Assembly (NCBI RefSeq): GCF_036365525.1
Contig: NC_090395.1
Span: forward strand, 65,683,326-65,747,325
Direction of reading: 5' to 3'
Length of the DNA stretch: 64,000 nucleotides
From: Heterodontus francisci
Taxonomy: Eukaryota
The notes below the pieces were generated by a model. The model made no database searches and was not told the origin of the DNA. It worked only from the letters and a program-made list of their open reading frames with translations. The position numbers and the translations under genes were made by a program. Shown piece after piece: positions 3,118-56,944 of the stretch. Positions within the stretch are counted from its first letter, which is position 1, and every line of letters begins with the position of its first letter.

Positions 3118-3351
3118 CTGAAACTGAAGAGATAACATTTCAGAAATTGAACAGGAAATAACTGTTGAATACAAACAGATACAATTTACGTGGGGAGAGG
3201 CGGGTCTTTCAGAGCAGTGAGAGACCTTTTGACAGCTATGCAGCAGGTGCTGGGGCCCTATTTTAAGCACCCCAGCACCTGCTTCCTGACAGCTGTCAAA
3301 GAAATACTTACCTGATGGCTGAAGAGTGGGGGCTGCTGTCAATCTGACAGC

Positions 3352-29270: not shown

Positions 29271-30244
29271 TATGTAATTGGCGCAACTGGTTTCCAATGA
29301 ATGAATCATTCAAGTTGTCTATTTCTTACAGAATCTTGTTCATGTATTATTGATACTTTCAGGCTTCAAAATTGACACAAAAATGATGACAAAACTATGA
29401 AATAAGAAGTCTAGCTGTGCAGAGTGCAAGTGGGCACACAGATAAATTATTGCCAATATGTAAATAGAGACAGTTGAACGACGCAGCCATCATTTTGATT
29501 TTGGATTCTTCCTCCACTAATTTAATGTCCACGTTGATTTAATGGCCAAGTTGATTTAATGCGAAAATCCATTTTATTATGTACAATTGGGAAAGATAAT
29601 GTTCAAAGCTGGGTGAAGAATGAATATTCAATCAGTTGTAACCTGGGAATCTTCATTTTACCACCTTGGTCAAGCTGTGACCTTCGTATTCAGCGAGTGA
29701 CTGGAAAAGAAAATATTTAAGACATCAGTTTTATTGAGACGGAGAACGATGCTTATTTTCCATGTCAGTGCTGAACAGAATTCTGGAACTAGCAACAAAT
29801 TAAGGAAAAGCTTGTGATGGACTGGAGCTGTGTTGAGATCACTCTCCTCTCTCCTCCATCACACATTTGCTGGGCAAAGGTGCCAGTTGAGACCCTCTAT
29901 AATACATCTAACACCATTTTCTCATAGACAACTGATATTTTGCTGCACTCTGATGGTGGGTAGTTGACTGCAGAAGAAAATTGACTTGGCTACTTTATTA
30001 AATACATTTTAAACAGCCCCGTTGAGGTTCTCAGCAACAATAGCATCAGGCCTGTGTATGAAACTCTTGGTGCTCGACTGGATAAATTCAAGTTCCCTGT
30101 GTTCTTGTCCAAAAACAATTGTCCCTTGTGCCCTCCAGTAAAGTGCTTTTCAACTTTCCCATTTTCTCCCTTTTTCTTAAGCGACTGTTTAGTAACAATG
30201 GACCGCAAGTCGGGAAGGTTCCGTAATGGGCCGGTTGCATAGTA

Positions 30245-32717: not shown

Positions 32718-33066
32718 AAAGAATGTAAAGAGCTTGTGACGACTTACAGACATGAAAGGCACCATGTAAATTTTATTATAAGAACCTTCACTGATAAAAT
32801 GAAACTTTCATTTATTAGTGGAAGTTCATCGAGACTAAAACTACATCTGGATGGATACAGCTACAACAAGAATCAAGAAGCCCAACACCATCCACAACAA
32901 GGAATCTATTTGATTTTGCCTAGATAACATCAGTAACACTTCAAAACTAACTCATATCACCTGTCAAACACTTTGTTTCATCTTGCGGATGTGAAAGCAT
33001 TCATATAAAAGCAAGCTTTTTTTTACAATATCTGTGATCAATTGCTTTGAAAGAATTGATAAATCG

Positions 33067-36000
33067 TGTTGTGATCCTGTAGTTTTTTGTTCTTTTCCAG
33101 GAAGTATGCAGTGTGCCATTAAAGCTGTAAAAGGATCAGTACTGCTTTTAGAACCAGAAAGCCTCAGGAATTAGAGAAAGTGCATTCCGGTTGCCATAGG
33201 ATACAAATATACAGAGAAGGAACCAACCAGCTTCAAAGAATGCATCCTGGTTACCCTGCAACAGCCATTCGGAGAACAAGGACCAAATATGCAATGTTAC
33301 GATGAACTGTTTGAACTGGCTTTTTATTTTTGATACAGACTGTTCTAACACACAGGCAGCTATTCTGCCAGCATATACTGAAGGAAAGAGAGTGCTCTCT
33401 TGGCTTATTTAAACCCTATTTATTATACTCTCAGAATCCTGATAAATCAAGCCAGATTATTTTCTTAAAAGAAAATAAACAATTACTTTAGCTACTCAAC
33501 TGTATTTGCTGAATTCATTGCTGGAAAAGGAAGAAGTGCATCACTTCAGCTCTTGAAATAGATTACTGACAGTCCTACTGTTGAAGAACTTTTTTTAATC
33601 CCCATCGGACAGCTGTGAGGACTTCAAGCAACCTTGGACTGTTCCACAATGGAAGATTCCATTTCAGCAGGAGCGTAAATCCACAAGGAAACCAACTTTT
33701 TCTATTTGGAATGTTGCTTCTATCTTAGTAGTGTTAGAGAATTTAGTTTTACTAATTAAACATTTAATTTGTTGATCTAAAGACACCTGATTTGGTTAGC
33801 CTGATTCAGGGGATAATAGATGGTCAATTTGGCAGTGTTTTTTTTAATATGGAAGGCTTAAAGTGATATGTTAGGCAATCTGTGGAGGGACGGGACTGAA
33901 TCAACAGTACGTTTCTCCCACTGCAATCAGAATCGTATATTTTGATTGGGGGCTTTGTCTTGAGGGGTCAATCATAACTTATTAATTGGGGGCTTGCTCG
34001 CGGTTGAATCATATTTAGTTCAGTGGCTCGTGGCTGGGATCAGAATCAGACTAATTTGGAGGGCTCACATTTGGAGTCATATTCACTACTTCTTTCTGGG
34101 ATAACATATTTAAATTGAGGTCTTGCATTTGGCCTCATATTTAATTGCACTCGCGTCTGGGATCATAGCAATTGGAAACTCGATTGTTGGGATCTCAATT
34201 TAATGCCAATTACAAAGAAAATAAAAGAACCAGGTGTCTTATATGATAAGGTACAGTCTATACTATTGTAATGGCATTAGTGGTTGCAACAGAGTTTTTG
34301 GGAAAGCAGAATGTTTCCATGAGTGACTTGATAACTTTAACTAAGAACAAATTAAAAGAATTGGCAACGAAAATGGGGTTTGGAATTGAAATTAGGTGCC
34401 AAAAAAGTAGAGATAATTGACATAATAGCTGAACATTCTGGAATTAGTAGAAGAAGATGATGAGGAGGATAATGATGATGATGGGCAATCCGAGGAACAA
34501 GAAGGCAGTAGGTCCAAGAGTGATGCAGTGGTATTGACTAGGATTCATTTAGAAATGAAAAAAACTTGAGGCAGAAAAAGAATTAGGAAAACTTGAATTG
34601 GAAAAAGAGGAAAGGAAAAAAGAAAAAGTGACAGCGATATGAAAACATGAATTGGAAAAAGAGGAAAGGGAGAAAGAGAGGGAACTTAAGTTAAAAGAGA
34701 TGGAACTAAGACAAAAGGGTAGACTTAAATCCTGGGAAAGTTTGGGTCAGGGAGAATCTGAATTTAGATCAGGATCCAGCGGAAAGTTGTTTACATTTAT
34801 ACAGGCTCTTCCTAAGTTCCAGGAAAGGAGCGTAGAGGCATTTTTCATATCTTTTGAAAAAATAGCCAAACAGATGAAATGGCCAAAAGAAAGCAGGACA
34901 CTGCTCATGAAGCTTATGCCATGCTTCCTGAAGAGGCTTCTACAGATTATGAGATGGCAAAAAAGGTTATTCTCACTGCATATGAGTTAGTCCCTGAAGC
35001 TTACCGTCAGAAGTTTAGGAACCTACAGAGATTGGCTGGGCAGACATATTTAGAATTTGAGAGGGTATTGCAAATTACTTTTGACCATTGGATACTGGCA
35101 TTAAAGATGGAAACCACATATGAGAACCTTCCAGAATTGATTCTTTTGGAAGAGTTTAAAAATTCCATTTCTTCAGTAGTGACAATTCATGTAGATAACC
35201 TGAAATTTTTGAAAGCTAGGCAAGCAGCAGAGATTGCTGATGATTTTGAGCTTGTGAATAAGCCAACCTATTTTGTCCGTCACCCCCATAAACCCGAGAA
35301 GGATAGAAAGTGGGAGAATGAAAAGAAGGCTAATAGCCAGGGACAAGAAAGAACAGCTGGGAATGCCCCAGGATCACCTCCTCAGGTCAGAAAGGAAGGT
35401 GCTGAGGGTAGAAGTGAGGTTCGCAAGCCAAAGTGTTATCATTGCAACAAAATAGGTCATCTTTGTTCAGAGTGCTGGAAATTGCGAGATAAACCCATAG
35501 GACTTGTTGGGGTATGCAAAGCTAGTGCAGAGGAAAAGACGATGACTAAAAGTATAGCAGACCAGGCTATAGCTTTAACGACAGCTGTGAAATCAGATAC
35601 TAAAACTAAAATGAATGTAGAGGTTAAGAATACAATACCTGAGCGTTATAATGAATTTTTGTCAAAGGGGAGAGTAACTCCATATTATGTAAGTGAGGCA
35701 GAGACACCTATCATTATACTCAGGGACACAGGAGCAACCCATAAACACTTGCTTGGGAAAGATATAAGGTTTCCACCAGAGAGCGCCTTGAAGGCTAAAG
35801 TTTTAGTTAATGGAATTGGTGGGGAGTATATACCTTTGTATAAAGTATGCCAAGAGAGTGACTTAACATCTGGGATAGTAACTGTAGTGTTATCCACAGT
35901 TTTACAGTAAAGGGAATTGATCTATTCCTAGGAAATGATTTGACTGGATCAAAAGTATCAGTTTCTCCTATTGTTACAGAGGAACCAAGTGAAATTAAGG

Positions 36001-38663
36001 AAACGGAGCAATTACAGGAAAAAGTTCTGGGAATATTTCCTCTTGTGTAGTCACCCGAGCAATGGTTAAACATGATCCATTATCAGAGCTGAAAGGGGCA
36101 CCACACTTAGATAGCTAAGTATCTGAAACCTTATTTGGGGATTTAGATAATACAAATGAGGACATCTCTAACAGATCATCTATCACTGCAGCACAACAAG
36201 CTAATCCAGAGAAATACAGAATAGCAGACGGCTCTGTCAGAAGCTGAGGCAAAAGGAGTTCCGGAAGGCTATTATATGACAAACAGGGTTTTGAGGAGGA
36301 AATGGAGACCGCCTCATAGACCTGCCGATGAAGACTGGACAGTTGTTGAACAGATAGTGGTACCATCTAAATATTGACAGGATTATTAAGGTTAGCACAT
36401 GACTTTCCTTTTGCAGGACATAGGGGAATTCGGAAGGCCAAATCACACATAAGCAAACATTATTACTGGCCAGGTCTTACACAGGATGTGAGACAATTTT
36501 GTAGGACATGCCATATCTGTCAAATGGTGGGAAAATCACAACCTACCATAAAACCAGGGGAAGTATTAGTGTTGTTACCATTACAGGGAGAACCATTAAA
36601 ATAACGGTTCGGTGGCCCATATCGAGTGATCAAAAGAGTGGGTAAGGTAGATTACTTGATTGACACCACTGATCGCCGGAGGAAGAACCGGTTTTGTCAC
36701 ATTAATATGCTTCAAGCAATATTACCGCAGGGAGGAGGTTAAGGCTCTACAGATATGTCAGGTAATCAGGACTGTTGAAAAAGAAAAGGATAGTGAGGAT
36801 GAGGCAGAAACAGACCTAGGAAATTCTCAGATTGAACCTCCAATAATCCAATTAGCGAATACAGAATGGCTAGGAAAATTAGACAATATGCTTTTACACT
36901 TAGAGGCAAAACAGCATGAAGTCCTAGCCAGGGTTTTCACAAGGTTTCACAACGTTTGTAGGGATAAGCCAGGATGCACAACCTTAGCCACACATGATGT
37001 GGGTATGAGGGAACCATTCATTTAAAACAACATCCTTGTTTCTTCGATCCAGACAAACATGCCCAAGTGGAAGCAGAGGGACAATGCATGATGAAGGGCA
37101 GCTTAGTTGAACCTAGTCAGGACAGCTGGAATTCACAGGTGGTCTTGATACCTAAACCTGGTGGGACGGCTCAAACTTGCATAAAATATAGAAAAGTCAC
37201 TGCGGTAAAGAAGGCAGACTCCTACCCAAATTCTTATTTAAACGACTGTATGGACAGAGTGGGCAACACCATGTGTCTTAAAGAGACAGATGTGCTGGAG
37301 GGATACTGCCAAATTCCTTTGACACCCCAGAGTAAGAAAAAGTTAGCTTCTATTATACCAAACAAGGTTTTTCAGTGGCAAGTGATGCCACATAGGTTAA
37401 GGGGTACTGAAGAAACATCTCAGAGAACAGTGAACCCAGTAATGGTCAGTGCTCCTAGCTGTGCACTTCATGTGGCTGAGGTGATGGACAATAGGAACAC
37501 TTGGAAGGATAGCAAAAAAATAACTGGAAGAAAATCCTTGGAAATTTGAAATGGGTTAATTGGGACAACCTTTTTGCAAATTTAAAGCCAAAAATGTTCT
37601 GGTAGAACTTGTTGCTGTAGTGCAATATTTTTGAAAAGTGAATACCTGTCAATGCAAGAAAAATGTGTTGGAGTTTTTTCAATTTGTATTTTTTACAAAT
37701 TGTAATAAAACACATTTCAGGAATGGTGTTTCATTCCACCAGGGGTGGAGGTGTTATGATCGTGTATTATTTTTTCTTTTCCGGGAAGTATGCGGTTTGC
37801 CTTTAAGGCTGTAAAAGGATCAGTACTGCTTTAAGAACCAGTAAGCTTCAGGAGTCAGAGAAAGTGCATTCTGGTTGCTGTCGGATACAATCATAGGGAG
37901 AGGGAAGCAACCAGGTTCAAAGAATGTATCCTGGTTATCCTGCAACAACGATTCAGAGAACAAGGACTGGATAGACAATGATGTGATTAACTGTTTGAAC
38001 TGGCTTTTTGATTTTGAGACAGACTGTTCTAACACACAGGCAGCTGTTCTGCCAGCATATACTGAAGGAAAGGAAGAGCTCTCTTGGTTTATTTAAACCC
38101 TATTTATTATACTCTCAGAATCCTGATAAGTCAAGCCAGATAAATTTCTTAAAAGAAAATAACCAATTACTTTAACTACTGAACTGTAATTGATGAATTC
38201 ATTGCCGGAAAAGGAAGAGGAACATAACTTCAGCTGCTGAAATGGACTACTGACTGTCCTACAGTTGAAGAACCTTTTTTTATCCACATCGGACAGTTGT
38301 GAGGACTTCAAGCAGCCTTGGATTGTTCCACAATGGAAGATTTCACTTCGGCAGGTGTATAAATCTGCAAGGTCACTAATTGTTTCGATTTTAAATGTTG
38401 TTTATATCTTAATAGTGTTTAAGAATGTAGTTTTTCTAATTAAACAGTTAATTTGTTGATCTAAAGACACCTGGTTTGGTTAGCCCGATTCAGGGGATAA
38501 TAGATGGTCAATTTGGCTGTGTATTTTTTAATTTGTAAAGTTTAAAGTGATACGTTAGATGATCTGTGGAGGGACAGGACTGAATCAACAGTGCATTTCT
38601 CCCCCCGCAATCAGAATCATGTGTTTTGATTGGCAGCTTTGTCTTGAGCGGTCGTTTGTAATA
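33067..38663 (+). mobile_element. Gypsy LTR retrotransposon, Gmr1-like order (gag-PR-IN-RT), decayed; LTRs at about 33067-33979 and 37752-38663
   Basis: Two similar ~910-bp LTRs; polypurine tract AGGGGTGGAGG at 37741-37751; CYHCNKIGHLCSEC; LRDTGA; HDFPFAGH..CRTCHIC placed before RT remnants (..GYCQIPL). Confidence 0.9.
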
Positions 38664-38694: not shown

Positions 38695-38785
38695 CTTAGA
38701 TTATCTTGTCCACCTTGTAAACAAAATGGCCCAAATCACCAGGAGAGCAAAGAGCACCCAGCATATCACATTGAAGATAATGTAA
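38695..38785 (-). CDS. Transmembrane exon: YIIFNVICWVLFALLVIWAILFTRWTR* (not in the ORF track)
   Basis: Long polypyrimidine tract plus AG at 38786; phase-2 entry gives about 22 hydrophobic residues then RWTR; TAA at 38703-38701; donor AAG|GTAG at 38695. Confidence 0.78.
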
Positions 38786-39619
38786 CTAAAAAAAGGGAAG
38801 AAATACAAAATCATTTGAAGGGAACGTGCTTGAAACATTTATCTCCTGTTTGCACTCTAATCTTAGTACATTGAACCAATGAAAAGCAGCAGAGCCAAGG
38901 GACTTCAGCTGGGAAGCTAATGTTTTTATGGAAGAAGGACAACTTTGTGATCATGACATAAAGATCAAATGAAGCAAAGTTCATTCAGGTGCCCAGACAG
39001 TATCACTGTAATGTTAAGCACAATTTTATAAGTGAGGACTTTCTAAAAGTGACTGGCCATCTGACGGAGGCACCGTCGTCTGGAGCCATGTAGCAATGGT
39101 AAGATGGCTCCTCAGGGAATGAGGATATTCAGAATAACATCATTCCACTGCTCTTATGTATCTTTTAATAGGCAATTGTTGAGCAGCTGGAAGTAGACAG
39201 TTTTCCCTCCCTCTCAGTTTGGGAACAATGTACTAAGGAGAAAATGACAGAGAATAAAACTTTTCTGTCAGTATCACTCCAGAACAGATAAGGTTAAAGA
39301 AAACCTGCAACGCTGCAGAGCAGCAAATGCAACTCCATGAGATTAGGTTCGTGGTGAAGTAATCAAGGTGAATAATGAAAGCAGCACCATCTGAGGGGCA
39401 GCAAACTGGAAAGGCTTACTTTCTGTTCATATTTACCAACAACATAAATATCATATTCGTTAGGAAGCTAACACAACAGCATGATATAAACCCAGTCACC
39501 ATTTCCATTCTGATGAATAATAGTTTGAAATAGTAGATGATTGTAAATCCTTTTGCAGGACACTCAACCATTTATTCTCATGTGAAAGCAATGAAAACAC
39601 AGAAATGAGAACTATATAC

Positions 39620-39725
39620 CTTTGACTGATGGATGTAGATGGTTCATCAGTACTTCTACAACATGTAGTTGTTCTTGATGTTGTCCTTGATGTTGTTGAA
39701 GAAATTTCACAAGAATATTCAGGTC
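39620..39725 (-). CDS. Ser/Thr-rich stalk exon (PEYSCEISSTTSRTTSRTTTCCRSTDEPSTSISQ)
   Basis: CAATAG|GA acceptor (phase 1, matching the C2 donor); AG|GTAT donor (phase 2, matching the TM exon). Confidence 0.7.
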
Positions 39726-39995
39726 CTATTGAGACAAGGGGATAACATTCAGATGCAACCTGATTCTCACTTGTCGGCAACCCTAAACAAATGGAACCTC
39801 AGTACTTGAGGAAAAGTCTGGGTGATGTCATGGATTTTGATGATTTAATTTCGGTGTAATTTCCCCCTCTTTGTTAGCAAGGAGAGATGCAGCAGACACC
39901 TGGCAGTGGTTACATTAGAGAGGTGGTGGTACAGAGTTACTGTTGGGAAGTTAAAGGGCTCAGGATTGTGGGACCACAATCCAGATATTACCTTT

Positions 39996-40913
39996 TGTTA
40001 TGACCAGGTGAGAAAGGTATCTAAGGGTCTTTTACTGTCTTCACCTGGTCTTATTGTAAGAAGGTTTAATTTTTACACACACTGTGTTTTGAGCTCCCCT
40101 TTGGTGAATCATTGTTCAACACTTTCCAATTATCAAGCAAAGAAATGAACACAAACAGGCTTTCTTAGGTTGAAAGAAGAAAAGTGAAATTTATTAAACC
40201 ATAAACTTAAACTCTAATGCGGTTAATGCCTATGGATATACGACGTGCCCACACAAGCATGCACATGCAATACACAATTGCAAACAGGGACAGAAAAGAG
40301 CAGAAGAAAAAATAAAGTAGACAGGTTTGAGGCAGTCTCTAAAGGGGTTTCTTGTTACTGTTTCTGTGTTTCCAGCTCGCCGTAGAATCCTTGATTTTAG
40401 ACAGCTCTTACTTTTCGTTGGGGCCCAGTATTCGTCTTAAACCTTGTTCACTGTAGGAGACTTTTCTCTCTTGGGGTGCCTATGTCTTCAATGGTTTTTG
40501 AAGCTGGTGAGGGTGAGATGAGAGCAGACAGGAGTGAGGTCTTTTCTAGTCCAGGAGTAAACAGCTTTCTAAGCTTTTTTCTCTGAGACAAGGTCAAAAT
40601 TCAAAAAATTCCAACAGTCAGTTAGTCATGTGACTAAACTGGCCTGACCTGTTTGTGTATTCAGCCATCTTAGCAGTTAACCTGGAATGCTTCAACGTCT
40701 GGTAATCAAAAGTCCATTTTGGATTAAATTGGAGCAGGGAATAGCTCCTTTGTCCTTTGAAGGACTGTCTGTTGACATGCTAATATCTCTCTCCAGCCAA
40801 AGTCTCCAGTTGTTTGTTTAAAGCAAGTTCTTTCTTCACCAACAACTGTTTCAAATCAATGTTCATGTGGTGAAATTATGTGTGTCATAGTCTTGTGGGG
40901 GGCCTGCATGGCA
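39996..40913 (-). mobile_element. Solo LTR related to 44901-45816
   Basis: Reverse complement starts TGCCATGCAGGCCCCC and ends GGTCATAACA; flanks CCTTT/TCTTT. Confidence 0.8.
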
Positions 40914-41454
40914 TCTTTTATGCCCCATGCAAACATAATGAGTGGACGTAATTAGTCGCAATTTATCTTATCAAAGCCCCTAATAATTTTAAATCCCTTC
41001 AGCAGATCATTTACCTCTGTTCTGATGTTTCTCTCCTCATAAATCAAAAGCCTCAACATGTTATCATTTCAGATCAACTCTTCCATTCTCTATCCCTGAA
41101 ATTCTTCTGAAACTAGCACAGAACAATTGGAGGTTGTATTTCCCAATTCCATCTGCTAGAAACAGGCATATTGGTTTCTGATGTTTCAGTCAATCAAATT
41201 CCATTGTAATTTCATGGGATAACTGAGTTTCTGCAACATTTACACATGATTTGGAGATATTTTATAATTCTGCCAATTTTCCAGGAAAAATGCAGATCAG
41301 TGTCCTTGTTCATAACCAGTGAGGGGCCAAATAGAATGAATTTGGCCAATTGCACTTTCTCAGAGAGACTGAAGGAATTTAACCAGTGACCAATTTGGAT
41401 AGACTTTAGTTAAAAAATTCATTAGCAATATTGCTTGTTAACTTTAATTCTTAC

Positions 41455-41776
41455 CAATGCTGCTGATTTGTGTCACATAACTGCAGTTCATCCCTGATCT
41501 GTTAATGTCTGACACGTGAACCATTTCACTGGATTTTTTCCCTGATTATTTGAGGCTGTGCAGTAATATTGATGATGTTGCTGTGTGAAGGATTGACAAT
41601 GTGGATCCAGTTTATTGGTGTCAGAGATCTTTGAATCTTCAGACGGGATCTTTTCATATCATGTGTACTGAATGGGAAGGAATCCCTGGACAGACTCACA
41701 GGAGGCGGATACTGAGCCCTCAAAACATGAGACATTGGTGGTGATAAAAATCTAAGTACAGGAACTGACACGGATT
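41455..41776 (-). pseudogene. Copy B second C2-type exon, frameshifted
   Basis: 322 nt vs 324 nt; 1-bp deletions near 41735 and 41537; TGG>TGA; splice sites retained. Confidence 0.85.
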
Positions 41777-44700
41777 CTGTGGGAAAGAAACAAACATTCG
41801 GATAATGACTCAACATCTAAAAATCATATACTCTCCAATTATCAGCACACTGTACCTCAGCCATGCTGGAATCTCACCAGTACATCTACCTCTCCATATC
41901 TCTCCATCCTCCTAGCAGCCTGAGCTACCATGTGTACCATTGTATCAGAATATAGCAGAGCTGAAGATCAGGACAGCAGCAATGATACTGAGGATGTGTC
42001 AACATGAAAATCAAGGCTATCCATTTCAATAGCTGGTAGCCAACCTCCTATGTTGTTTGATTGTTTGATTGTCGCATGTGAACTAATTGGAGAGAGTCTT
42101 AGATAAACACAGCAGAAAATGAGGCCAAAAATTTGACTGACATCTGTTACAGGTTTTGTGGCTTTAGATAGGGAGTATAATTGTGATTGACTTTGTTTAA
42201 CTGCAGCTAAACATTTCTGGGGAGTCAGGGAGGGAATGTGTGCACAGCCCAAAAACCTGGAAATACTGGGGAAGTGGTGGTACTCTTGCCAGTGATGCTC
42301 AAATCCTATGAATGAATTAAAAAAATGGGGTGCAGGCAGTACCACACAACAGAGTTTATCCTAACCTCTCTGAACAGCAGTACCTCTGAAGGCTGAGGTT
42401 GTCATGTAAGATGGTGTCAGACATCTGCAGCCTCCTATAGGAAGACCTGCTGCATGCTGGATCTGGTGGTGTAAGGTTTAAGGTTAAGCCCAGAAACTAC
42501 AGATCAGTCAGTTTAACCTCAGTGGTGGGAAAGTTTTTAGAAACGATAATCTGGGACAACATTAACAGTCACCTGGACAAATATGGATTAATTAAGGAAC
42601 TCCAGCAGATATTTGATAAAGGCAAATCATGTTTAACTAATTTTAGTGATATTTTGATGAGGTAACAGAGAAGGTTGATGTGCTCTTCATGGACGTCCAA
42701 AAGGCACTTGATATGGCTTGTCAGCAAGGTTAAAGCCCATGGAATAAAGCGGACAGTGGCAGCATGGATATGAAGTTGGCTAAATGACAGGAAACAAAGA
42801 ATAGTGGTGAACAGTTATTTTTTGCACTGGAGGAAGGTATATATACTGGAGTGCCCCAGGAATTGGTATTAGGACCATTGCTTTCATGATCCACATTAAT
42901 GTCTTGGACATGTGTGTAAAGAACACAACTTCAAAATTTTCAAGTGACACAAAACTTGGAAGTATAGTGAACTGTGAGGAGGATAAGGGGCTTAAGATCA
43001 CGATGGTCTTTGGCATGCGGGCCGCCATTTTTTGAACCAAGATTGGCGGCGGTCTCTTAAAACCCAGCGCAGAGTCTGTGGATGGAGTCTATGTGATTGT
43101 GCACCTGTACTCACCTTTCCTGACTGTTTAGGTCATTAATGTGTATCTGCACTGAACACAGGAACATAGTATGAGCCCCTGCTGCTGACCTCAAGCATGT
43201 TGAATTGATGCCAGCAGCAAGTGAAAGATGATCATGTGTATAGTTATCAATTAAAATGTTCTTACTGCGACATTTCTAATTCATGTCTTTGCTCCCCCAC
43301 AGGGCATTCAAGAGTCCACAGGAGGTGCTCTAGGAAGACAAATCCCCAGAGGAGGTCACTCCCTCTGAGGGTGAACAGTCACAGCACTCACCCAGACCGT
43401 GCATCAGCTCAGATCCTCACACTGTGGTGGGACCATGGAATAAAAGGAGAGTGGCAGCATGGATAAGAAATTGATTAAATGACAGGAAACAGAGTGGAAT
43501 AAAGGGTTCTTTTTCAGACTGGAGGAAGGTATACAGTGATGATCCTCAGCGGGTGGTACTAGAACCAATGCTTTTCTTGATCTATGTTAATGACTTGGAC
43601 ATGGGTGTAAAGAGCACAATTTCAAAATTTGCAAATGCCACAAGACTTGTGAACTGTGAGGAGGATAGTGATAAACTTCAAGTGGACCTAGAGAGGTTGG
43701 TGGAATGAGCAACACGAGGCAGATGAAATTTAATACAGAGAGGTGTGAAGTGATACATTTTGGTAGGAAGAACTAGGAGAGGCAATATAAAATAAAAGAT
43801 ACAATTCTAAAGAGATGCAGGAGCAGAGGGACCTTGGGTTCGATGTGCACAAATCATTGAAGGTGGGAGAGCAGATTGAGCAACCAGATAATATGTATAT
43901 GAGATTGTTGGCTTTATAAATAGAGGCATAGAGTACAAATGCAAGGAAGTTATAGTGAACCTTTATTAAAACACTGGTTCAGCTGCAACTGGAATATTCT
44001 GTCTAATTCTAGGCACCACACTATAGGAAGGATTAGAGAAGGGTTCAGAAAAAATGTATGAGAATAATCCCAGGGATGAAGGATTCCAGTTACATGGCTA
44101 GATTGGTGAAGTTGGGCTGTTCTCCTTAGAGAAAAGAAGGTTGAGCGGAGATTTGATAGAGGTCTTCAAAATCATGATGGATCTGGACAGAGTACATTGG
44201 AAGATACTCAACACTATCCAGGATAAAGCAACTTGTTTGACTGACACCTAATCCACCATCTTAAACAAGGTGATCCTTCATACCAATGCTATAATGGATC
44301 AGTGCACTACAACAGGTAGTTTGATGAGAACGATGTCAAGTAGGATTTTCCCTTGTGTTGGTTCTCTCACCAACTTCCTCATACCCAATCAGGCAGCTAT
44401 GTCCTTCGGAATTTAACCAGCTCAGTTAACAGTGGTACTACCACTTTAGGTGATGAACATTGAAGTTCTCTCGCTCAGAGTACTTTCAGTGTCCTTGTTA
44501 TATTCAGTGATTCTTCCAAGTGGTGTTCAACATGGATGACTTCTTATTCCTTGATAGAGGGTGGTAGGTGACAATTAGCAGAAGATTCCTTTGCCCATGT
44601 TTGGCCTGTTGCTTTAAGACTTCATGTGGTCCGCAGTGAATGTTGAGGACTCTCGGGCCAGTCTCTCCTGAGTGTATACTCCAATTCCGTTGCCTCTGGT

Positions 44701-44900
44701 GGATCAATCCTGTCATTGGTTCAGAACATTCTCAGGGATAGTGATCCAGAAGTCTGGAACATTAGCTGAAACGTATGATTCTGTGAGTGTCACAATGTCA
44801 GGCTGTTGCTTGACTGGGTCTGTGGGACAACTCTCCTAATTTTGGAAAAGTCCCCAGATGTTCATGAAGAGGGCTTTGCAGTGTCGCCTTGGTTGAGTAC

Positions 44901-47139
44901 TGTCATGCAGGCCCCCACCTGCCAGGAATGAAGCACGTTGGTTTTGTCATACGAACATTGATTTTGAACTGTTGCTGGAGCAAGGAAATGACTTCTTGTT
45001 CAGATCAGCCGTGGCTGGAAAGAACATTTGCATAGTAACAGATGATGCTTATGTAGAGAAAGGAGCAGCCCCTGACACATTCAACCCACAATGGATGCTG
45101 ATCACCGGACAGTGAGGAGGTGGGGAAGCGCATTCTAGGGGCTACTGGGACGATGCAATCCACAGGGGCCAGGACTGGTTGGACTAGCTGGTCACATGAC
45201 TAACTGGCTGTTCCAGGGTTTTTTGAAGTAGCCACAGAGAGTTTGAACTCAGAAAGATTGTTTTCTCCTGGACTGAGAAGATTTCTGCTGTCTGCTCCCA
45301 TCTTTTTCTCACGGAACTCCAAATCCACTGAAGACACATAAACCCCAACAGAGAAACGTCTCCAACAGCAAACAAGGTTTAAAAAGAATACTGGACCCCA
45401 ACGAAGAGCAAGATCTACCAACAATCAAGGACTCTACAGTGAGCTCAAAGAACCGTAACAAAAACTGTCTTCAGAGATTGCCTCAAACTTTTCCACTTTA
45501 TTTTCTTCTGCTCTTTTCTGTCTCTATCTGCATGTGTATATTGCGTATGCATGCTAGCTTGGGCGTGTCGTGTATCGTAGCTGTTAACTGAATTAGAGCT
45601 TAAGTTTAAGTTTAGTAAATTTCAACCTTTCTTCTTTAAGCCTAAGAAAACCTGTTGGTGCTGGTTTCTTTGCCTTATTATTGGAAGTTAGTGAACAAGG
45701 ATTCACTAAGGGGGGAGCTAAAAAAACCCAGTGTGTTTAAAATTAAACCCTGTTACGACAAGACCAGGTAAAGGCTGAGAGGGAAACCTAGAACCCTTTC
45801 TCCTCAGGCGGTAACAGAAATTTGGGGGCTCATCCGGGAATTTACCCACAGACAACCAAGGGAAATTGGAACTGGGAAGCCAAATTGTTCCCAATCAAAA
45901 AACAGCAAGATTTAAATAACATGTCTGCAACTGAATCTAGTAACTCCCCAAGCCAGGGTGAAGTGACTTGGGATAAGTTAAAAGCACATACGGAGGAGCT
46001 GAGAAAAATGGCTGAGGAGTGTAGGATCACGGTACGTGACAAGGCTAGGAAGTCTGAACTCCGAAGACTAGAGGCCAACCATTTATCCCTTGAATCTGAA
46101 GAAGCAGAAACAGGGCTAGAAGCAGACTCTGACTGGGTATTGTTAGCAAAGAAACAATTGGAACAGAGGAAACTTGAATTTGAGGTAAGGGTTAGAGAAA
46201 GAGAGAGGCAGGAGAGGGAGAAAGAAAGAGCCTTCCAGAAGGAACATAAGAGAGAGAAAGACAAGAGAAGGAACAGGAAAGAGAGGAGAGAGAGAGAGAA
46301 AGAACATTCTGGAAAGAATGCGAAGAAAGAGAGCTGAAGCAGCTTGAGTTAATGAGGGGGCGACAGAGTAACACCAGTGAAAGCACATCTAATATGGAGG
46401 AGCGTAATTCAGGGCTAGGTACAGAATTGTTAAACCTAGCTCAACTAACCCCAAACAAATGAGGAAGATGTAGAAGGTTTTTTTGTGTTCTTTGAGAAAC
46501 TGGCAAGGCAGTTAAAATGGCCAGCAGAGACCTGGCCTCTTTTACTACAAAGCAAGCTAACCAGAAAAGCCCATGAGGTATATTCCCTGTTGTCAGATGA
46601 GAGTTCATCAAATTATGAACTGACCAAAAATGCTATCCTCGGGGCGTATGAAGTAGTACCCGAAGCCTATCGCCAAAAGTTTAAGTCCTCAAAAAGCAAG
46701 CTAATCAAACTTATCTGGAGTTTGAAAGAAGCAAGCTGGCTTTTGTCCTGGGAGAGAAAGGAAATCAGGAGACACAGGGGGCCCTCCTCTAGCCAAAAAG
46801 GAAAGTGCTGTGAACAAGAGTGAGGCCCAGAGACCTGTGTGCTTCCATTGTAATAAAGCAGGGCATTTAAAAGCTGACTGCTGGAAACTAAAGGGAAAAC
46901 CGGTAGGGTTAATCAGGGCACACCCACTCAGTGAAGACGGAACCCTGATGGAAAGCACAGCAGAACAAGCTGTGGCTTTAACTGCAGTAAGAGTGAGACC
47001 CAGGAAGCTTATGGCTGTAAGTGCAAGAAAAGCTAATAAGATTCCTGAAGGTTATAGGGGTATTGTGTTTGAAAGAAAAGTAACCCCATACCCCAAGAGT
47101 GGGGCAAGCAAGCTCATAGTAACTCTCCGGGTCATAACA
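44901..47139 (+). mobile_element. Gypsy element with 5' LTR (44901-45816), gag remnant and large internal deletion; copy B only
   Basis: TGTCA..GTAACA LTR; CFHCNKAGHLKADC; ends in GGTCATAACA; empty site in copy A at about 2185. Confidence 0.85.
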
Positions 47140-47805
47140 ATATGCTTTAGTCATACCTTGTACTTAGGTGGAAACAGGATGGTCCATCCAGTTATATACT
47201 TCTTAGACTTTCTCACAGCCATTTGCAACTGAATGGCATGCAAGGCCGTTTCAGAGGGCAGTTAAGAGTCAACCACATGGCTGTGAATCCAGAGTCACTC
47301 ACAGGCCATACCAGGTAACAACAGCTGATTTCCCTCCCTAAAGGGCATTAAAGCAGTTGGGTTTTGATGAAAATCCGATGCTTTCATGGTCACATGGCTG
47401 ATATTAGATTTTTAATTCCAGATTTTTTTAATTAATTGAATTTAAATTCCCCAGCAGTCTGTGGAATTTGAACTCTTGTCTCTGGGTCATTAATCCAGGC
47501 CTTTGAATTACTAAGGGATATGGGGATAGTGTGGGAAAATGTCATTGAGGCACAAGATCAACCATGGTCCAGTTGCATAGTGGAGCAGGCTCTAGGGGCC
47601 AAATGGCCTATTCCTGCTCCTATTTCCTATGCTCCAATGTTGCGATGTAACATGACTACTATGGTATGTGACCTCTGCCAACTACCTGACAGACTCTGCA
47701 CTGCTGTGGAGCCTCGGGATATTGGAGCTGTCATGTTTCTCCCAGAAAAAACATTGACCAGACATTTCAGTAAAGAGTAATAAAGTAAATCACTGAGAAA
47801 TGTAC

Positions 47806-48108
47806 TGTAAGATATTTGTAGTTCTACAGCAAACACTAGATCAAGGCCAGGTAGTTCAATACCACAGTTGTACCATCCTGCATCTGCTGAACGAAGATCA
47901 TTCATAATAACAACAAATATTCCTTGTGTCTTGCTATCAGTAATTGATATTATTCCTTGATGTCCATCTTGCTCATTTGTTTTTATGAAAACTGAACTCT
48001 GGTTGCTCCAATATTTTATGTATGACTGATACCATTTGCCACAGTCACAATCTATTGTGATCGCTCTTCCCAAAACTCCTGTTACTTTCTTTTTTGCACA
48101 CAATGCAC
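47806..48108 (-). CDS. Copy B V2 exon, open frame, 303 nt
   Basis: Homologous to 2815-3117; donor A|GTACAT; extra Cys (IDCDC). Confidence 0.83.
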
Positions 48109-48909
48109 CTGAAACTGAGGAGACAACATTTCAGAATTGAACAAGAATAACTGTTGAACACAAACAGATACATTTTTATAAGTGTTACCACTGTGTACTG
48201 AGGAATCTTGCCACAATATTGATTATTACATTGAATTCCTTCTACTTTGTGATGAAGGAAAACATTAAAATTGTGCCTATCACGGCCTCAGGATGTGCCA
48301 ATGATTTATTTTTGATATAAAGCATAGTCAGCTTTGCTATTGCGTCAGTTGTGGCTCAGTGTTAATGCTCACATCTCTGGTGTTAGTAGATTGTGTGTCC
48401 ACTCCGAAGACCTGTGCTCATAATCTAAGCTGGCACTCAACGCTGCAAGACTGAGGGAGTGCTGCACTGTTGGCGGTACTATCTTTCAAATGAGATATTA
48501 ACCTGAGACATGTCTGCCCTCTTGGTTGGATGTAAAAGCTCACATGGCACTAATTCGAAGAACAAGGGATTACTCCCCAGAGTCCTGACGAACATTTATC
48601 CCTCAACCAACAACTTCCAGACAACAGATTATGTGATCGTTATAACTTTGCTGTTTGTGGGAATTTGCTGTTTGTAAATTGGCTGCTGAGCTTTCTACAA
48701 CAGTGGCAGAAATTCAGATAAATAATTGGATGAGCAGCACTTTAGAACTTCCTGAAGTTGTGAAAGGCATGAATCAAATGCAATTCCATATTGTTCCTAA
48801 TTTCTTAGAGGGACTGAAGATACATGATCAGTGTCAGTTTGGATAGAGATTAAACAAATTCATTAATTAAACGCATTTTTTTGGTTTCAATTTATCACTT
48901 AACTATCAC

Positions 48910-49230
48910 CAATGCTGCTGATTTGTGTCAGATAACTGCAGTTCGTTCCCGATCTGTTGAAGAGTGACACATGAACCATTTCACTGAATTTTTCTCCCTG
49001 ATTATTTGAGAATGTGCAGTAATATTGATGTTGCTGCTTGAAGGATTGACAATGTAGATCCAGTTTATTGGTGTCAAAGAGCTTTAAATCTTCAAATGGG
49101 GTCTTCTCACGCCATGCGTACTGAATGGGAAGGGATCCCCAGACAGACTCACAGGAGATGGACACTGAGCCCCCAGAACATGAGAGATTTGGTGGTACTA
49201 AAAATCTAAGTACAGGAACAGACACAGATT
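48910..49230 (-). CDS. Copy B first C2-type Ig exon, open frame, 321 nt
   Basis: Acceptor CCCACAG|AA, donor G|GTGATA; homologous to 6719-7042. Confidence 0.85.
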
Positions 49231-51518
49231 CTGTGGGAAAGAAACAAACATTCTGATACTGACTGAACATCTAAAAATCAAATACTCTCCAATTTTCAGC
49301 ACTTCTGTATCTAAACCAGGGCCTGTCATGTTGGAATCTGTCTAGCACATGTACCTCTCCATATTTCTCCATCTTCCTCATAGCCTGAACTACCATGTCT
49401 ACCATTGTATCAGAACATAGCAGCGCTGCAGATCAGGACAGCAGCAATGATACTGAGGATGTGGCTAACAATCAGGTGAACAATTTCTCAGGTAACCAGC
49501 CTCCAATGCTGTTTCAATATTTGACTCTTGAAAGTGAATGAGTTGGAAAGAGTCCTAGAAAAGCACAGCAGAAAATGAGGGCAAAGAATGGGAAGTTATC
49601 TGTTACAAGTTGTGTGGCTTTAGATAGAGAGTGCAATTGCAATTAGTTTAATTTAACTGCAGCTGGAAAGAAATCCTTTGGCCCTGAAATTTATGGGGTA
49701 TGGGGAGGGAGTATGTGGTCAGGAAACCCAGAAATGCTGGGGAGGTGGAGGTTGTCCCAAACGTAATGGCAGAACCTCACCAGAATTCATTTTCTCCATT
49801 TCTTGCCCAGCACTGAGCCAGATTGAGAACTGATCAGCTGCCGAGTGTGAAAACCTGCTGTGGAAGGTTGGGGGAGTGGGGGGTTGCGAGGATTTGGAAT
49901 GTGGCAGCAAGGAGGGAAAGAGGGAAGGAGAGATCGCTGTGGGTTTGACCAATTGCAGTGTGGGACAGATTGCAGCAGGTGGTTTGTTTGGGGGCTGGGG
50001 TGAAGCTCTCCTGCTCCTTCTGGCCCACAAGCAGTGCTGGAAAAACATTTACCTGCTGTTCCTGAGGAGGATATTTTTTCACCCAGAGAGATGTCGCGGT
50101 CTGGAACTCACTGCCTGAAAGAGTAGTAGAGACAGAAACAATCATCACATTTAAAAACACTTGGATATGCACTTGAAGTGCCGTAACCTACGGGCATGAA
50201 CCAAGAGCTGGAAAGGGGAATTAGACAGAATAGCTCTTTCTCAGCCACCATGGACATGATGGGCCGAATGCCCTCCTACTGGTCCTTAAATCTTTCCATG
50301 TTTCTATGTTTAAATAGAAGGATGGGTGCATGTGAAAGTTAACTGGGCATAGGGAGTGATCTGATGCTGTGGGTTTGACAAGATCAAGTGTGGGGAATGG
50401 AATCTATGTGTTTCATTACCTGTAATGACCTTTAGGTCATTAATATGTATTACTGAAAATGTTCTTACTGCAACATTTCTAATTCATGTCTTTATTCTTC
50501 CACAGGGCCTTCAAGTGCCTCACAGGAGGTGCTATAGGAAGACGAATCCCAAGAGGAGGTCACGCCGTCTGAGGGTGAACAGTCACAGCACTCATACAGA
50601 CCGTGCCACAAAACTTGGAACTCTAGTGACCTATGAGGGAAATAGTGTTAGACTTGAAGAGGACATAGACAGGCTGGTGGAATGGGCGGACATGTGGCCT
50701 ATACAACGTAATGCAGAGAAGTGGCAAGTAATTCACTTTGGTAGGAAGAATAAGCCAAGACAATAGAAACAAAAATGATGCAATTCTGAAGTGGGTGCAA
50801 GAACTGAGAGTCCTGGGGGTTTACGTGCATAAATTGTTGAAGGTGACAGGGCAGATTGAGAAAGTGCTTAAAAAGGCATATGGGACCCTTTGCTTTATAA
50901 ATAAGGGCACAGAGTACAATAGCAAGACAGTTATGATGAACCTTTATAAAATACATGTTCAGCCTCAACTGGAGTATTGTGTCCAATTCCGGACACCGTA
51001 CTTTAGGAAGGATGTGAAGGCTTTTGAGAGGGTGCAGAAAAGAATTGCAGGAATGATTCCAGGGATGAGGGAGTTCAGCTACTTGGATAGATTGGAGAAG
51101 CCGGGGTTGTTCTACTTGGAGAAGAGAGGTTGCGAGGCAATTTGATGGATGTGTTCAAAATCATGAGAAGTCTAGACAGAGTAGATAGAAAGAAACTATT
51201 CTCATTGGCGGAAGGGTCAAGATTCAAAGGTCATAGATTTAAAGTGATTGGCAAAAGAACCAAATGGCGACACGAGGAAAAATGTCTTTATGTAGTAAGT
51301 GGTTATGATCTGGAATGCACCGCCTGAAAGGGTGGTGGAGGAAGATTCAATCATGCCTTTCAAATGGGAATTGCATAGGCACTCAAAGGAAAAAGTCTGC
51401 AGGGCTACAGGAAAAGGGTGAGGAAGAGGGACTAACTAAGTTGCATTTACAGAGTGTTGACATGGGCTTAACAAACAGAATGGCCTCCTTCAGTGGCATA
51501 ACCATTCTATGTTTCTAT

Positions 51519-52186
51519 GGGCTGGATTTTATGGGCTCCCCAAGGCAGGGTCAGAGGTGGAGTGTCCCATAGAATAGCAACAGGTGGCGGGGGGTAGAAG
51601 GCCCATCGCCTCCCTATCACCAGGAAATTTTTCCAGGGTTGGGATAGGTTGACAGTGGCCTTACCGCCAAAGGCCAATTGAGGCCATTAAGTGGCCAATT
51701 AAGTGCCTCTTCCCACCAACACTGGGTTCTAATGAGCGACAGGATGGGGCGGGGGGGGCCTACGCCAAGTGGGGAGGGTGCCTTGTAAAATGAGGCCTTG
51801 TGGGGGCAGTCCCTTCTTCATGGGCCATCGATGACCCACAGAGGACCTCCGCAGGCAAAACCTATAACTCCATGGCCCACCTACCCTGGACTTAGTGCCC
51901 ACCCTCCCACCCCACCCTGGGCCTGGGTCCAAGGGCTCTGCAGTATGGGCAGTGGCCATCTTTCCTGGTGGTGCTGCTGCTACTGCTGAGTTGCCAGTCC
52001 CATGACTGTCCGGCAGCTCTTGGAGCAGGATCCCCGTCTTTGAAGGGATGGGGATTCCGGTGCGGGATGCATGGGCATTAAAAGAGCGGAGGATCGCTCT
52101 GGGAGGATATGAAAGGCCATCGTAGGGCTCCCTCTGCCTTCTCAGCCTGGCTCCAGGAGCTCTGCCTCCTCCACAAAATCCAGCCC
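51519..52186. mobile_element. Non-autonomous Harbinger-like MITE, TIR GGGCTGGATTTT, 3-bp TSD TAT; paralog 9450-12565
   Basis: TAT|GGGCTGGATTTT...AAAATCCAGCCC|TAT. Confidence 0.8.
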
Positions 52187-53722
52187 TATGATTCCAACAG
52201 TAAGGCAGATAGTTGTGTTCTCACCTGGCGACTTGCACATCATAAGTGAACAGGAGTGGATGGTGAATGCAGGGACTGCAGTGGGGAGTCTGCATTGGGG
52301 GCCATAGGACACTGAAGGCTTTGTTCAGCTGGATGCAGATGCTGCACCCAAGGGGCCGTTGATGAACAGGATGTTCCTGGGGCAGCAGCAAAGAATGTGT
52401 GGTGTACAGGCAGGCTTTCAAGTTGCACTGTGCATGCTCACAGAGAGATTGGAGGAGTCCATCTCAAGTGTGAGTGGCATTATGTCACAAGCCTTTGCAA
52501 TGATATCTTCATCCAATGAAAGAGTAGCCTCCTGCATGGAGCAACAAATGTGGCAATCACACGAATAGGATAAATCACCCCCTCGCATTGACCATTCATC
52601 CTCCCACTGATCTCCAGCAAGGTGTTCTCCAGTGGGTGAGCCATGGGAGGGGTAATGGTGAAAGGAGACATGGATGTGGGGACTTGGTTCAAAGTGTTTT
52701 AACTTCTCACCTGTTGCCCTTCATCCCACATCATTCAGTACCCCACCTGTTGCCTCATGTCTGATGGACAAGTCTGGCCCTGCATAGGTGCAGGCAGAAC
52801 AGATTTTGCCAGGGCCCTCATAGACTCCAAAACCCAGAGGACACCAGCTAAGAGCATCTCAGCAGTCAGAGCAGGGATCTTAGCGGCCCACCCCTACCTC
52901 TGCTGACACCACAGGGGTTGCATCATGTAGAAGTGCACAGAAAAGGAAGAATAACAATTTTTAGTTGCACAAGTGTATGCACATGGCTGTTTGTGAACAT
53001 TTTTATATTGTTAAGTGAGCCCCCTGCTACACTGGTGTTCCGATGTGTTATGGAAACGTATCCTATGCCTGTACACCCTGTGTTGCAGGGACAACCTCCT
53101 GTGAGCTAAGGTCCAAGATAAAACAGGATAAGCGGCACTCGCACTGATCTGATAGATAACATGGGCAAAGTGCAGAGCAGACGTCAAAACCTCCACAGTT
53201 GTGAAAATAACATCTCAGCACAAATACTGTGAACAAACCCTCTCACACAATCAGACAAGAAATCAGCTGTCAGGTTTCTGTACTTATTGGTGTTTCCTAG
53301 TCCTGTGTTCAGCCTCCTCAATTCCCAATGTCTTCTCACCTTGCTTTCACTGGCAAGTTCCAGGAAGCCTGGGAGACCCGTGCACCCACAGTTAATTTCC
53401 AAAGTTCATGTAACATTACACAAAATGATCCATTAACATCCTGAAATTGACAACAGCATCTCTGAAGGAGTTTGCTCACACACAGACTGACACGCTCCAT
53501 TGTTAGTCCAATAATATTTTAAATTCTTGGTCAGAAAGTTGGACAGGCCATGAATTGGGTGTGCGTAACACGAGTCGGATTTCCCGACCTCTGCCCGTTA
53601 CCTGTCAGACTCTGCACTGCTGCAGAGCCTTGGGATATCGGAGCTGTCATGTTTCTCCCAGATAAAACCTATTGATCAGATATTTCAGTGGAGAGTAATA
53701 AGAAAATCACTGGCAGATGTAC

Positions 53723-54037
53723 CGTAAGATATTTGTAGATGTACAGGATATAATTGATCAGCGTCACGTTTATCAATGCCACAGCTGTACCATCCTGTAT
53801 CCTCAGTGTGAAGATACTTCATTGTAACAACAAATTTTCCTTGTGTCTTGTTATCTGTGATTGATATTCTTCCTCGCTGTCCACCTGACTCATCTGTTTT
53901 CACTGAATATGAACAGTGGTGAGTCCAGCCATGACACTAATATTTCATGTTTGTCTGGTAATATCTGTGGTCGTGACAATCTATTGTGATCGCTCTTCTC
54001 ACAATTCCAGTTACTTTCCTTTGTGCCAACAATGCAC
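53723..54037 (-). pseudogene. Copy B V1 exon with nonsense codon at the conserved Trp (KY*C)
   Basis: 315 nt, phase 1-1; TAG at 53939-53937 where copy A has TGG. Confidence 0.88.
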
Positions 54038-56907
54038 CTGTAATGGAGGAGACAACATTTCAGAAATTGAACAGGAAATAACTGCTTATTACAAACAGAT
54101 ACATTAGCATAAGAGTTACCACTGTGTACAGAGCAATCTCTCCACTGTATCTACTAATGTGTTGAATTCCTTCTAATTTGGGAGAAAAAACCTTAATATT
54201 GTGCTCTATCACAGCTTCAGAATGTGCCAAAACACTTCTCAGCCAATAATTTACTTTTGAAGTACAGTCACTATTGCGATTGTGTTCACTGGGGCGCAGT
54301 GTCAGCACTCTCTCCTCTGGGTTAGTAGATTGTATGTTCGAGTCCCACTCCAGAGACCCAAGCTTAAAATCTACAATGACATTCCAGTGTAGTACTGAGG
54401 GACATGCTGTCTTTTAGATGAGATGTTACACAGAGACCCTATCTGCCCCTCAGGTGCAAATGTTGGCACAGCCCTTTTTCAAAGCAGAGCAATGGAGTTT
54501 TCCTTGGTGCTATGGTCAGTATTTGTCCCTCAACCAACAATCACAAAAAAAAGCTGATTTGTTCATTATTATGTTTCTTTTTGTGGGTTCTTACTGTGCA
54601 CAAATTGGCCGCCACTTTTTCAATGTTACAACAGTTACAATACCTTAAATGAGTAATTGGCTGTAAAGCACTTTGAGATGTTTTGTGGTCTTAAATGGCG
54701 GTAAATAAATACACGACCTTCTTTCTAACAGCAACAACTTAAATTTGAGTTGCTTCTCAATTCATTCAGCAACATGGGAAATGCCAAATTAATTTCCATC
54801 CCCTCAACTTTGTTGGGTGCAACTGGTACAGCAGCAGGATTTGGAGAAGGAAGGTTAACATGTTTCATGCAGCCAAGAACGTAGAAAGGAAGAGGATTGC
54901 GGTTCAGCAAGGAAAGATTCAGGAACTTGGAGATAGGTCAATGAGTAGAACCTTGAGGGTAGTAAAGACAGGATTATTCCCAGTGCACATGGCCATCCAT
55001 ATAAGAATAGTAAGATAATATAAGTAATTGTCTGGCTGGAGAGATGCTTCAAACGAAAATGGTTCATATTCTTGTCACATTGGTGCCAGTTCTGGAAGAG
55101 GAGCAGTCTGTAGAGGACGGGAGGATTTTACTTGAACATTTATTAGACCAATGGCCTTGCTTGGAGAGGAACGCGTGTTGTGGGGAAAGAGTTTACACTA
55201 AAATGACAGGAGGAGGGATTAAAAACAAGATGAAGAGCCAGAGAGAAAAGCAGAAATGACAAAGGTTATAGGAAAGATTAAAGAGGGTCAGTGGAGAGAT
55301 AAAAGAGATCAGATAGGAGAAGGAAGTATTGAAAAGAGGAAGATAGCCAAACAGACAGAGGCACCCATCAGTCAAATGTACACAATACATAAAGTATTCT
55401 GTGTAAAATGAGTAAGCTAGAGGCACAAATATTTGTGGGGAGATTTGATGTAATAGAATGAACAGAGTTGTGGTTTAGAGTAGGCTGTACTGGGAGCTTA
55501 ACATTGCTGGTTACAAAATAGATTCATAATACCCCTTTGGTAGCAAAAATAAAAAATAGAATATTTTTCAAAAAGTGAGAGATTGGGAAATGTTTGCATT
55601 CAGAGGGACCTGGATATCCTTGTAAATCAAACACAAAACGTCAACACGCAGGTACAGCCAACAATTAGGAAGGCAAATGATATGATAACTTTTGTTACAA
55701 CAGGATTGGTGTGTAAGACTAAATAAGTCTTTCTAGAATTATACAGAGGATTGTGAGGCCTGGAGTACTGTGAACAGTTTTGGTCTTCTTACCTACAGAA
55801 GGACATACTTCCTCTAGAAGGAGTGCAATGATGGTTCACTAGACTTGTTCCTGGGATGAAGAGATTGACCTACGAGGAGCGATTGAATGGACTAGGCCGA
55901 TATTCCCTGGTGTTTAGAACAATGAGTGGTGATCAAATTGGAACATATAAAATTCTTAAGGGGCTTGACAGGGTAGATGACAGGGTAGATGCTGAGAAAA
56001 TGTTTCTCCTGGCTGGGAATCTAGAACACATTGTTTCTCAGAATAAGGGATTGGATATTTAGGACTGAAGTGAGGAGAAATTTCTTCACTCAAAGGGTTA
56101 TGAAACTTTGGAATTCTCTACCCCAGGGAGCTGTAGATGCTCAGTCGTTGAATATATTCAAAACAGAGGTTGATAGATTTTTGGGTACTAAAGGAATTAA
56201 GGGATATGGAGGATAGTTCGAGAAGGTGAAGTTCAGGTAGGAAATCAACCATGATCTTGTTGAACAGCAGAGCAGGTTCAAAGGGCCGAATAGCTGACTC
56301 CTGAACCTATTTTTACCATCTTATGTAAAAGGAGTGTTGGAAGTATTAATCACAATTTCCATTACAGCATAATATTATTAGGTTAATATGGGGTGGGAGT
56401 AAAAAGCTAAATCTATTGATTAAAGTTAGAGTGAGAAGAAAATGTTACTGATTGGAAGAGCGATATAGATCAATTGTCTGTCAGTGAGGAACAGTGTCAC
56501 TGACAGAGCCTCATAAAACAATATTGCATCAGCTGTACTTTAAATGACAGAAGCAATCACAAACTCAAGACATGTTCTGTTTGAAGGATTATTACTTCAG
56601 ATTATTTAATCTTTACAGATTAAAACAGGTTACATTTACATTTTAATTAAACTAGCCGTATAGCTTTTTTAAAAGTTAAATGAACCCTTTATTTTCCATT
56701 CACAACTAATAATGCAGTTTAGTATATGTTGGTAACTATTTCTGTGATTCAATAGTATGGTCAAAATGAGATACAAGACTTTACACAAATATTATTCATT
56801 TATTTTTACTAAGTATTTTGTGCCTTTACACGTCTCCAAGTAGAAACTCTACACTAGACTGAAACTAACACTGATTATCTGAAGATCTAGCTCTGGCTGT
56901 TACTCAC

Positions 56908-56944
56908 CGGGTAGGGAACAAATGAGAAGAATCAGAATCCACAA
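56908..56944 (-). pseudogene. Copy B leader exon, start codon TTG (LWILILLICSLP)
   Basis: Aligns to 20376-20412; TTG at 56944-56942; donor G|GTGAG. Confidence 0.8.

Follow-up and report, generated by a model that had tools for sequence, protein, structure and literature searches.

Exon structure and state of the focal gene

We analysed a 64,000-nt stretch of the Heterodontus francisci genome (GCF_036365525.1, NC_090395.1, positions 65,683,326 to 65,747,325 of the forward strand; hereafter the window, whose own positions are used below), which carries a receptor gene of the MDIR (modular domain immune-type receptor) family with immunoglobulin (Ig) domains, hereafter the focal gene. An earlier reading of the letters alone (the original prediction) had proposed a splice-compatible series of leader (L), V, C2, V, C2, stalk and transmembrane (TM) exons, and this series was borne out: we recovered seven ordered minus-strand exons at the same coordinates (38695–56944), all with GT-AG splice sites. 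A tail exon outside that span had been overlooked; since tblastn gave mostly noise there, it was accepted once three paralogous exons had been read. The exons are as follows.

56908–56944, minus strand: leader exon; start codon changed to TTG, against ATG in 7 other leader exons of the gene cluster described below
53723–54037, minus strand: V1 exon, CD300-type V domain of subtype Va; TAG replaces the Trp of the KYWC motif
48910–49230, minus strand: C2a exon, MDIR-type C2 domain; frame open
47806–48114, minus strand: V2 exon, V domain of subtype Vb, without the C-C' loop disulfide; frame open
41455–41776, minus strand: C2b exon, broken by two single-nucleotide deletions and a TGA
39620–39725, minus strand: stalk exon, Ser/Thr-rich, of the short-tail gene type
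38695–38785, minus strand: TM exon; Cys in place of the Arg of the other short-tail genes (4 out of 4), and TAA shortly before the donor
29653–29700, minus strand: tail exon, short, without a tyrosine motif

Both V exons matched the Pfam V-set domain (V1, E 1.7e-7; V2, E 6.4e-8), while C2a matched Ig_3 weakly, below the cut-off (E 0.0014). With skate MDIR5 as the query, tblastn gave 94–119 bits on the four Ig exons, and all 20 shuffled controls stayed at or below 25 bits; the TM exon reached 28 bits, barely over that maximum. The internal Ig exons are all in phase 1, and a candidate start, an in-frame ATG, lies at 57004, 20 codons upstream of the focal leader start.

The focal copy is a pseudogene. 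It has no intact reading frame, with start loss, stops and frameshifts, and the predicted receptor series, although splice-compatible, makes no protein (the C2b exon is 322 nt long and out of frame). Changes polarised against the other paralogues amounted to 44 non-synonymous versus 12 synonymous on the focal lineage, compared with 21 versus 11 on that of the sister gene G4 (4 were ambiguous). The focal ratio is approximately the neutral one, which is ~3.6–3.8 from site counts; it was 14:4 in C2a and 14:5 in V2.

Assignment to the MDIR family

In 2006, Cannon et al. reportedly described MDIRs with mixed domain classes and a likeness to FcR homologues. The accessible text of PMC3031540 presents MDIRs as a multigene set of activating and inhibitory receptors that occur in skate and zebrafish and resemble CD300, TREM, FCAR and pIgR; it was the sole paper discussing MDIRs found in a literature search whose coverage excluded most subscription papers.

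The architecture of the focal locus is already known, its layout being the same as that of skate MDIR5, named in 2006 (Rostroraja eglanteria; ABC86800.1, UniRef100_A0S0F2, P0053): L-V-C2-V-C2-stalk-TM and a short tail, that is, modular V and C2 domains in one type I membrane protein. The focal Ig exons are 44–66% identical to those of MDIR5 and the TM, of the same class, 55%. They differ in that the focal copy is broken, that it has lost the TM arginine of MDIR5 (Cys instead), and that its V domains belong to the shark subtypes Va and Vb and are not one-to-one orthologues; in the V tree, those of sharks and those of batoids fall into different clades. V-C2 modules of the focal types are also found in skate MDIR2 (ABC86796.1) and MDIR3 (ABC86797.1) and in Callorhinchus 'MDIR2' (AFK11143.1), but in these, as in genes G1, G4, G6 and G8 of the cluster, the TM is uncharged and the tail has a tyrosine motif. 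The original prediction had taken the alternation of V and C2 domains for a novel chimeric architecture; this is wrong, because skate MDIR2, MDIR3 and MDIR5 are V-C2, V-V-C2-V-C2 and V-C2-V-C2, respectively.

The focal V domains were 45–51% identical to named MDIR V domains (6/6) and the C2 domains 48–64% to named MDIR C2 domains (5/5), with a BLASTP E value of 1e-36 to MDIR5. The V tree comprised 222 domains, of which 202 remained from 231 homologue domains after near-duplicate removal and 20 came from the H. francisci genome. Both focal V domains fell within the elasmobranch MDIR clade (FastTree support 0.975), V1 in subtype Va (0.954) and V2 in subtype Vb (0.739), which is without Cys36. 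A search with the second V domain of G4 recovered 26 shark proteins, and the best 120 of 122 matches to P0025, an NCBI protein of H. francisci, include skate MDIR2, MDIR3 and MDIR5. Among 137 homologue records, mostly gene predictions and some clearly fused genes, 128 hold both V and C2 types and 49 are V-C2-V-C2.

Mammalian CD300 has a single V domain and no C2, pIgR has only V domains and FCRLs have only C2-type domains. The focal gene, with two V and two C2 domains, differs from all three in its ectodomain, and shares the V-domain class with CD300 and pIgR. The likeness to CD300 extends in part to the C-C' disulfide (except in Vb) and to the calcium/lipid-pocket residues of the third complementarity-determining region (CDR3), although Trp89 is mostly replaced; the CDR1 motif of pIgR domain 1 is essentially absent from MDIR V domains (its pattern matched 1 out of 214). 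Thus, V exons of CD300/pIgR type had been rightly recognised, but the KYWC..C motif cited for them is intact in neither: V1 reads KY*C, and the subtype of V2 lacks that cysteine (16/16 domains of the clade). In this genome, the two Vb copies (47806–48114 and 2810–3121) are missing Cys44 as well; in other sharks, 14 domains retain this cysteine without its partner. In line with the claim that the C2 exons are FCRL-like, the solved structure that the C2 profile matched best was FCRL5 (best domain 35.6 bits), though MDIR C2 domains differ from FCRL5 by extra cysteines (in 198 and 192 of 199 domains), the first opposite non-Cys residues and the second past the aligned part. Databases mostly mislabel the family as pIgR-like or FCRL5-like.

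A structure model of P0016 (pLDDT 74, pTM 0.41) showed four beta domains and a TM helix; in a whole-chain fold search pIgR ranked first at a template-modelling score of only ~0.2, which adds nothing. We also considered a stronger within-species homogenisation of C2 than of V domains and rejected it, as the nearest neighbour was of the same species for 119/198 C2 and 123/214 V domains, with no clear difference.

The V-C2 gene cluster and the origin of the focal copy

In the 454 kb read around the window we found nine V-C2 genes (G1–G9, the focal gene included) within ~390 kb. Four of them have long tails and five short tails, so that activating and inhibitory forms occur in one multigene family, the paired on/off design that is also that of the CD300 family. 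The other eight genes are as follows.

G1 and G8: long tyrosine-motif tail; no lesion found
G4: long tyrosine-motif tail; retroelement in V1 and a late stop
G6: long tyrosine-motif tail; stop, and a frameshift seen from C2 exon length
G2 and G9: short tail; stop directly after the TM
G3: short tail; two broken V exons, third V-C2 pair intact
G7: short tail; frameshift in the first C2
2810–20412 (approximate ends), minus strand: L, V1, C2a and V2 of the sister gene G4, 85–94% identical to the focal 5' part

G4 continues past base 1 of the window (L019–L017), where its TM is uncharged and its tail has a tyrosine motif, and no leader of G9 was found in the cluster region. The multigene nature that had been proposed is borne out, and many copies in the cluster are dead. 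A stop or frameshift was seen in 5/5 short-tail genes (in G2 and G9 only after the TM) versus 2/4 long-tail genes, in small numbers. G8 encodes P0025, with a 100% match in four exons. Its C2-to-stalk joint (GT..AG) was seen in 2 out of 3 RNA-like runs of one sample, a loose end in a run (X3) being the start of the G8 TM exon; the V-to-C2 joint was not among the RNA-like contig matches listed. No RNA-like run was listed for the focal V2-C2a stretch, which speaks neither for nor against its transcription. Other RNA-like contigs carried alleles of G1 and of the last V-C2 pair of G3. Seven more distant CD300-type V exons lie 260–400 kb further left (L042–L057, 65.28–65.42 Mb), with three short-tail Arg-Trp TM exons; no C2 exon was found among them in the two regions read, which lie 40 kb apart.

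Between 57350 and 42479 the focal gene and G4 align in colinear blocks, at 85–94% identity. Below 42479 the relation changes: the focal C2b is 81% identical to that of G4 versus 83–88% to those of the others, the stalk/TM regions are closest to G2 (79%), then G7 (75%) and G4 (70%), and the TM region matches short-tail genes only, with no G4 TM match. Tyrosine-motif tails are carried by G4 and by the Va-C2-Vb-C2 proteins P0017 and P0002. Judging from these identities, the focal gene looks as if a 3' swap had turned it into the activating counterpart of its inhibitory neighbour: a duplicate of G4 would have acquired the last C2, together with stalk, TM and tail, from a short-tail gene, an unequal crossover near 42.5 kb of the window would have given the inhibitory ectodomain an activating 3' end, and the swapped copy would then have decayed.

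Mobile elements in the window

The retroelement in V1 of G4 was placed as follows.

14474–15982, plus strand: 5'-truncated reverse-transcriptase retroelement (RVT_1) with an open frame and a 35-bp target-site duplication

A second, inverted copy (17595–18799, minus strand) is 99.6% identical, also 5'-truncated and with an open frame; from sequence features, the pair may belong to the RTE clade. In the TM-to-tail intron of the focal gene (33066–38653), 904-bp direct repeats (87% identical) flank a decayed pol-like stretch, likely an old long terminal repeat (LTR) retrotransposon; Pfam gave no match on 36998–37546, an LTR-like remnant. Finally, 44900–47134 and 40010–40634 hold what is left of a decayed gag-like sequence, including a zinc knuckle (zf-CCHC), and inverted LTR-like repeats; G1 contains a related piece.

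Pocket residues, signalling and distribution

The V profile scored 93 bits on mouse CD300f versus 49–54 bits on pIgR domain 1. According to the available part of PMC6166816, CD300f holds calcium and phosphocholine through Lys94, Gly96, Asp98 and Met100, with Tyr34 and Cys36-Cys44. The CDR3 of G1 aligns gap-free to that of CD300f and keeps all four of the former residues. Asp98 is kept in 139 of the 214 V domains (Va 22/23, Vb 2/16, others 115/175); focal V1 keeps it with both C-C' cysteines, and focal V2 is without both cysteines. Because the V domains match CD300f over pIgR and mostly keep the pocket aspartate, lipid head-group sensing is the likeliest role that these residues suggest for most intact members, with diversified ligands in others.

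An arginine TM was found in 45/137 homologues. The parts of PMC2413239 and PMC4536121 that were accessible report that, in Xenopus and in mammals, FcR-gamma is the partner of receptors with an N-x-x-R TM. By analogy, intact arginine-TM members would signal via an adaptor with an immunoreceptor tyrosine-based activation motif, and members with tyrosine-motif tails would inhibit. We found one TM exon of FcR-gamma/CD3-zeta type in this genome (L060:1480-1581). A predicted complex between the G7 TM and a dimer of the adaptor TM scored 0.12, which is uninformative, and was not used.

Among the best 150 of 2801 matches of a full HMMER scan, V-C2 proteins occurred in Callorhinchus, gar, arapaima, Hoplias, a caecilian and a spadefoot toad. 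The design is therefore not lineage-specific: what stands of the lineage specificity originally proposed is the expansion, but not the V-C2 unit, which is found also in a chimaera, in ray-finned fish (gar, arapaima and the characin Hoplias) and in the two amphibians. The V domains of the bony-vertebrate proteins group with MDIR V domains (support 0.904), apart from V-only outgroups, and an Arg-Trp opens a TM-like stretch in 4 out of 5 of them. These proteins (P0193, caecilian; P0218, spadefoot toad; P0233, gar; P0237, Hoplias; P0240, arapaima), named uncharacterised or pIgR-like, are likely bony-vertebrate MDIR relatives as judged by their domains; the extra C2 cysteines are kept in all five. 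The C2 outgroups in this tree were CD22-, sialoadhesin- and CEACAM-like and bacterial proteins, with no FCRL (5 out of 6 looked up).

Interpretation

We conclude, with a probability of roughly 0.85, that the focal gene is a broken MDIR5-type copy which likely makes no receptor and was likely once the activating partner of a lipid-sensing pair. Several observations weigh against parts of this interpretation. A dN/dS (ratio of non-synonymous to synonymous rates) near 1 is undiagnostic for V exons, as intact V pairs reach 1.2–1.3, and since the Ig exons are in phase 1 and an upstream ATG is at hand, skipping V1 and C2b could keep the frame. As to the ligand, Asp98 is absent from 75 of the 214 V domains, both MDIR5 V domains included, most MDIR V domains have Ser at the position of Trp89 in the CD300f pocket, and Vb is without Cys36 in 16/16 and without Asp98 in 14/16 cases. 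As to the swap, the combination of Va-C2-Vb-C2 and an arginine TM recurs in P0013, possibly a fused prediction, which may point to an older swap or to more than one. As to signalling, the Asn of N-x-x-R is not fixed (the full motif is in 3/5 short-tail TMs of the cluster, and MDIR5 has Lys), and no FcR-gamma was detected in sharks according to the part of PMC4016189 available, so that the adaptor-type TM exon may be CD3-zeta.

It is improbable that the intact members are instead Ig receptors, a shark stand-in for pIgR or Fc receptors, with the focal gene as a dead copy. The pIgR/CD300 class of the V domains and the FCRL5 match of the C2 domains would suit such a role, many homologues are named 'polymeric immunoglobulin receptor-like' by NCBI, and cartilaginous fish are reported, in the accessible part of PMC13337447, to have neither pIgR nor Fc receptors, a point treated there as open. 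Against this, the single-domain scores favour CD300f, the CDR1 of pIgR domain 1 is longer by two residues and its motif is almost absent from MDIR V domains, and the fast divergence of V domains would be easier to reconcile with a ligand that varies than with a constant Fc. Of the two ligands originally guessed, Ig or lipid, the second thus appears the better supported by the domain comparisons.

A continued use of the focal copy, as a shortened L-C2a-V2-stalk-TM or a secreted form arising by exon skipping and the upstream ATG, is less probable still. The open frames of C2a and V2 and the phase-1 exons would permit it, and alleles of the third V-C2 pair of G3, which is intact in that otherwise broken gene, do appear among the RNA-like contigs (12/12 and 8/8 listed differences), but continued use requires two skips and a new start, the changes in C2a and V2 are neutral-like and the TM arginine is lost. 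That the lesions are assembly errors or a one-haplotype null allele, the gene being intact in the species, is very improbable, because, while both 1-nt deletions of C2b lie in or beside short A runs, the start loss, the three stops and the Arg-to-Cys change are substitutions in four different exons, the focal lineage has 44 amino-acid changes, and local accuracy is high, as G8 matches P0025 at 100% in four exons.

A decayed activating twin of G4 in a known family remains our preferred interpretation, and as a dead copy the focal locus is itself of little importance, although it appears to record a switch from an inhibitory to an activating receptor. Of modest use to comparative immunologists are this apparent switch, the occurrence in bony fish and amphibians of V-C2 proteins with an arginine in a TM-like stretch, and the pocket residues discussed below. 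A broader proposal, that the V-C2 cassette is an ancestral receptor of jawed vertebrates, retained from chimaeras to amphibians, and that the intact shark members are the missing Ig receptors of cartilaginous fish, turned on or off by 3' swaps like that of the focal copy, is a long shot; if true, these members would join a pIgR/CD300-type binding domain to FCRL-like spacers. For the family, the calcium/lipid-pocket residues of CD300f kept in most MDIR V domains give a direct binding test, and the ligand bears on how sharks manage without the pIgR and Fc receptors that they are reported, in the available part of PMC13337447, to be missing.

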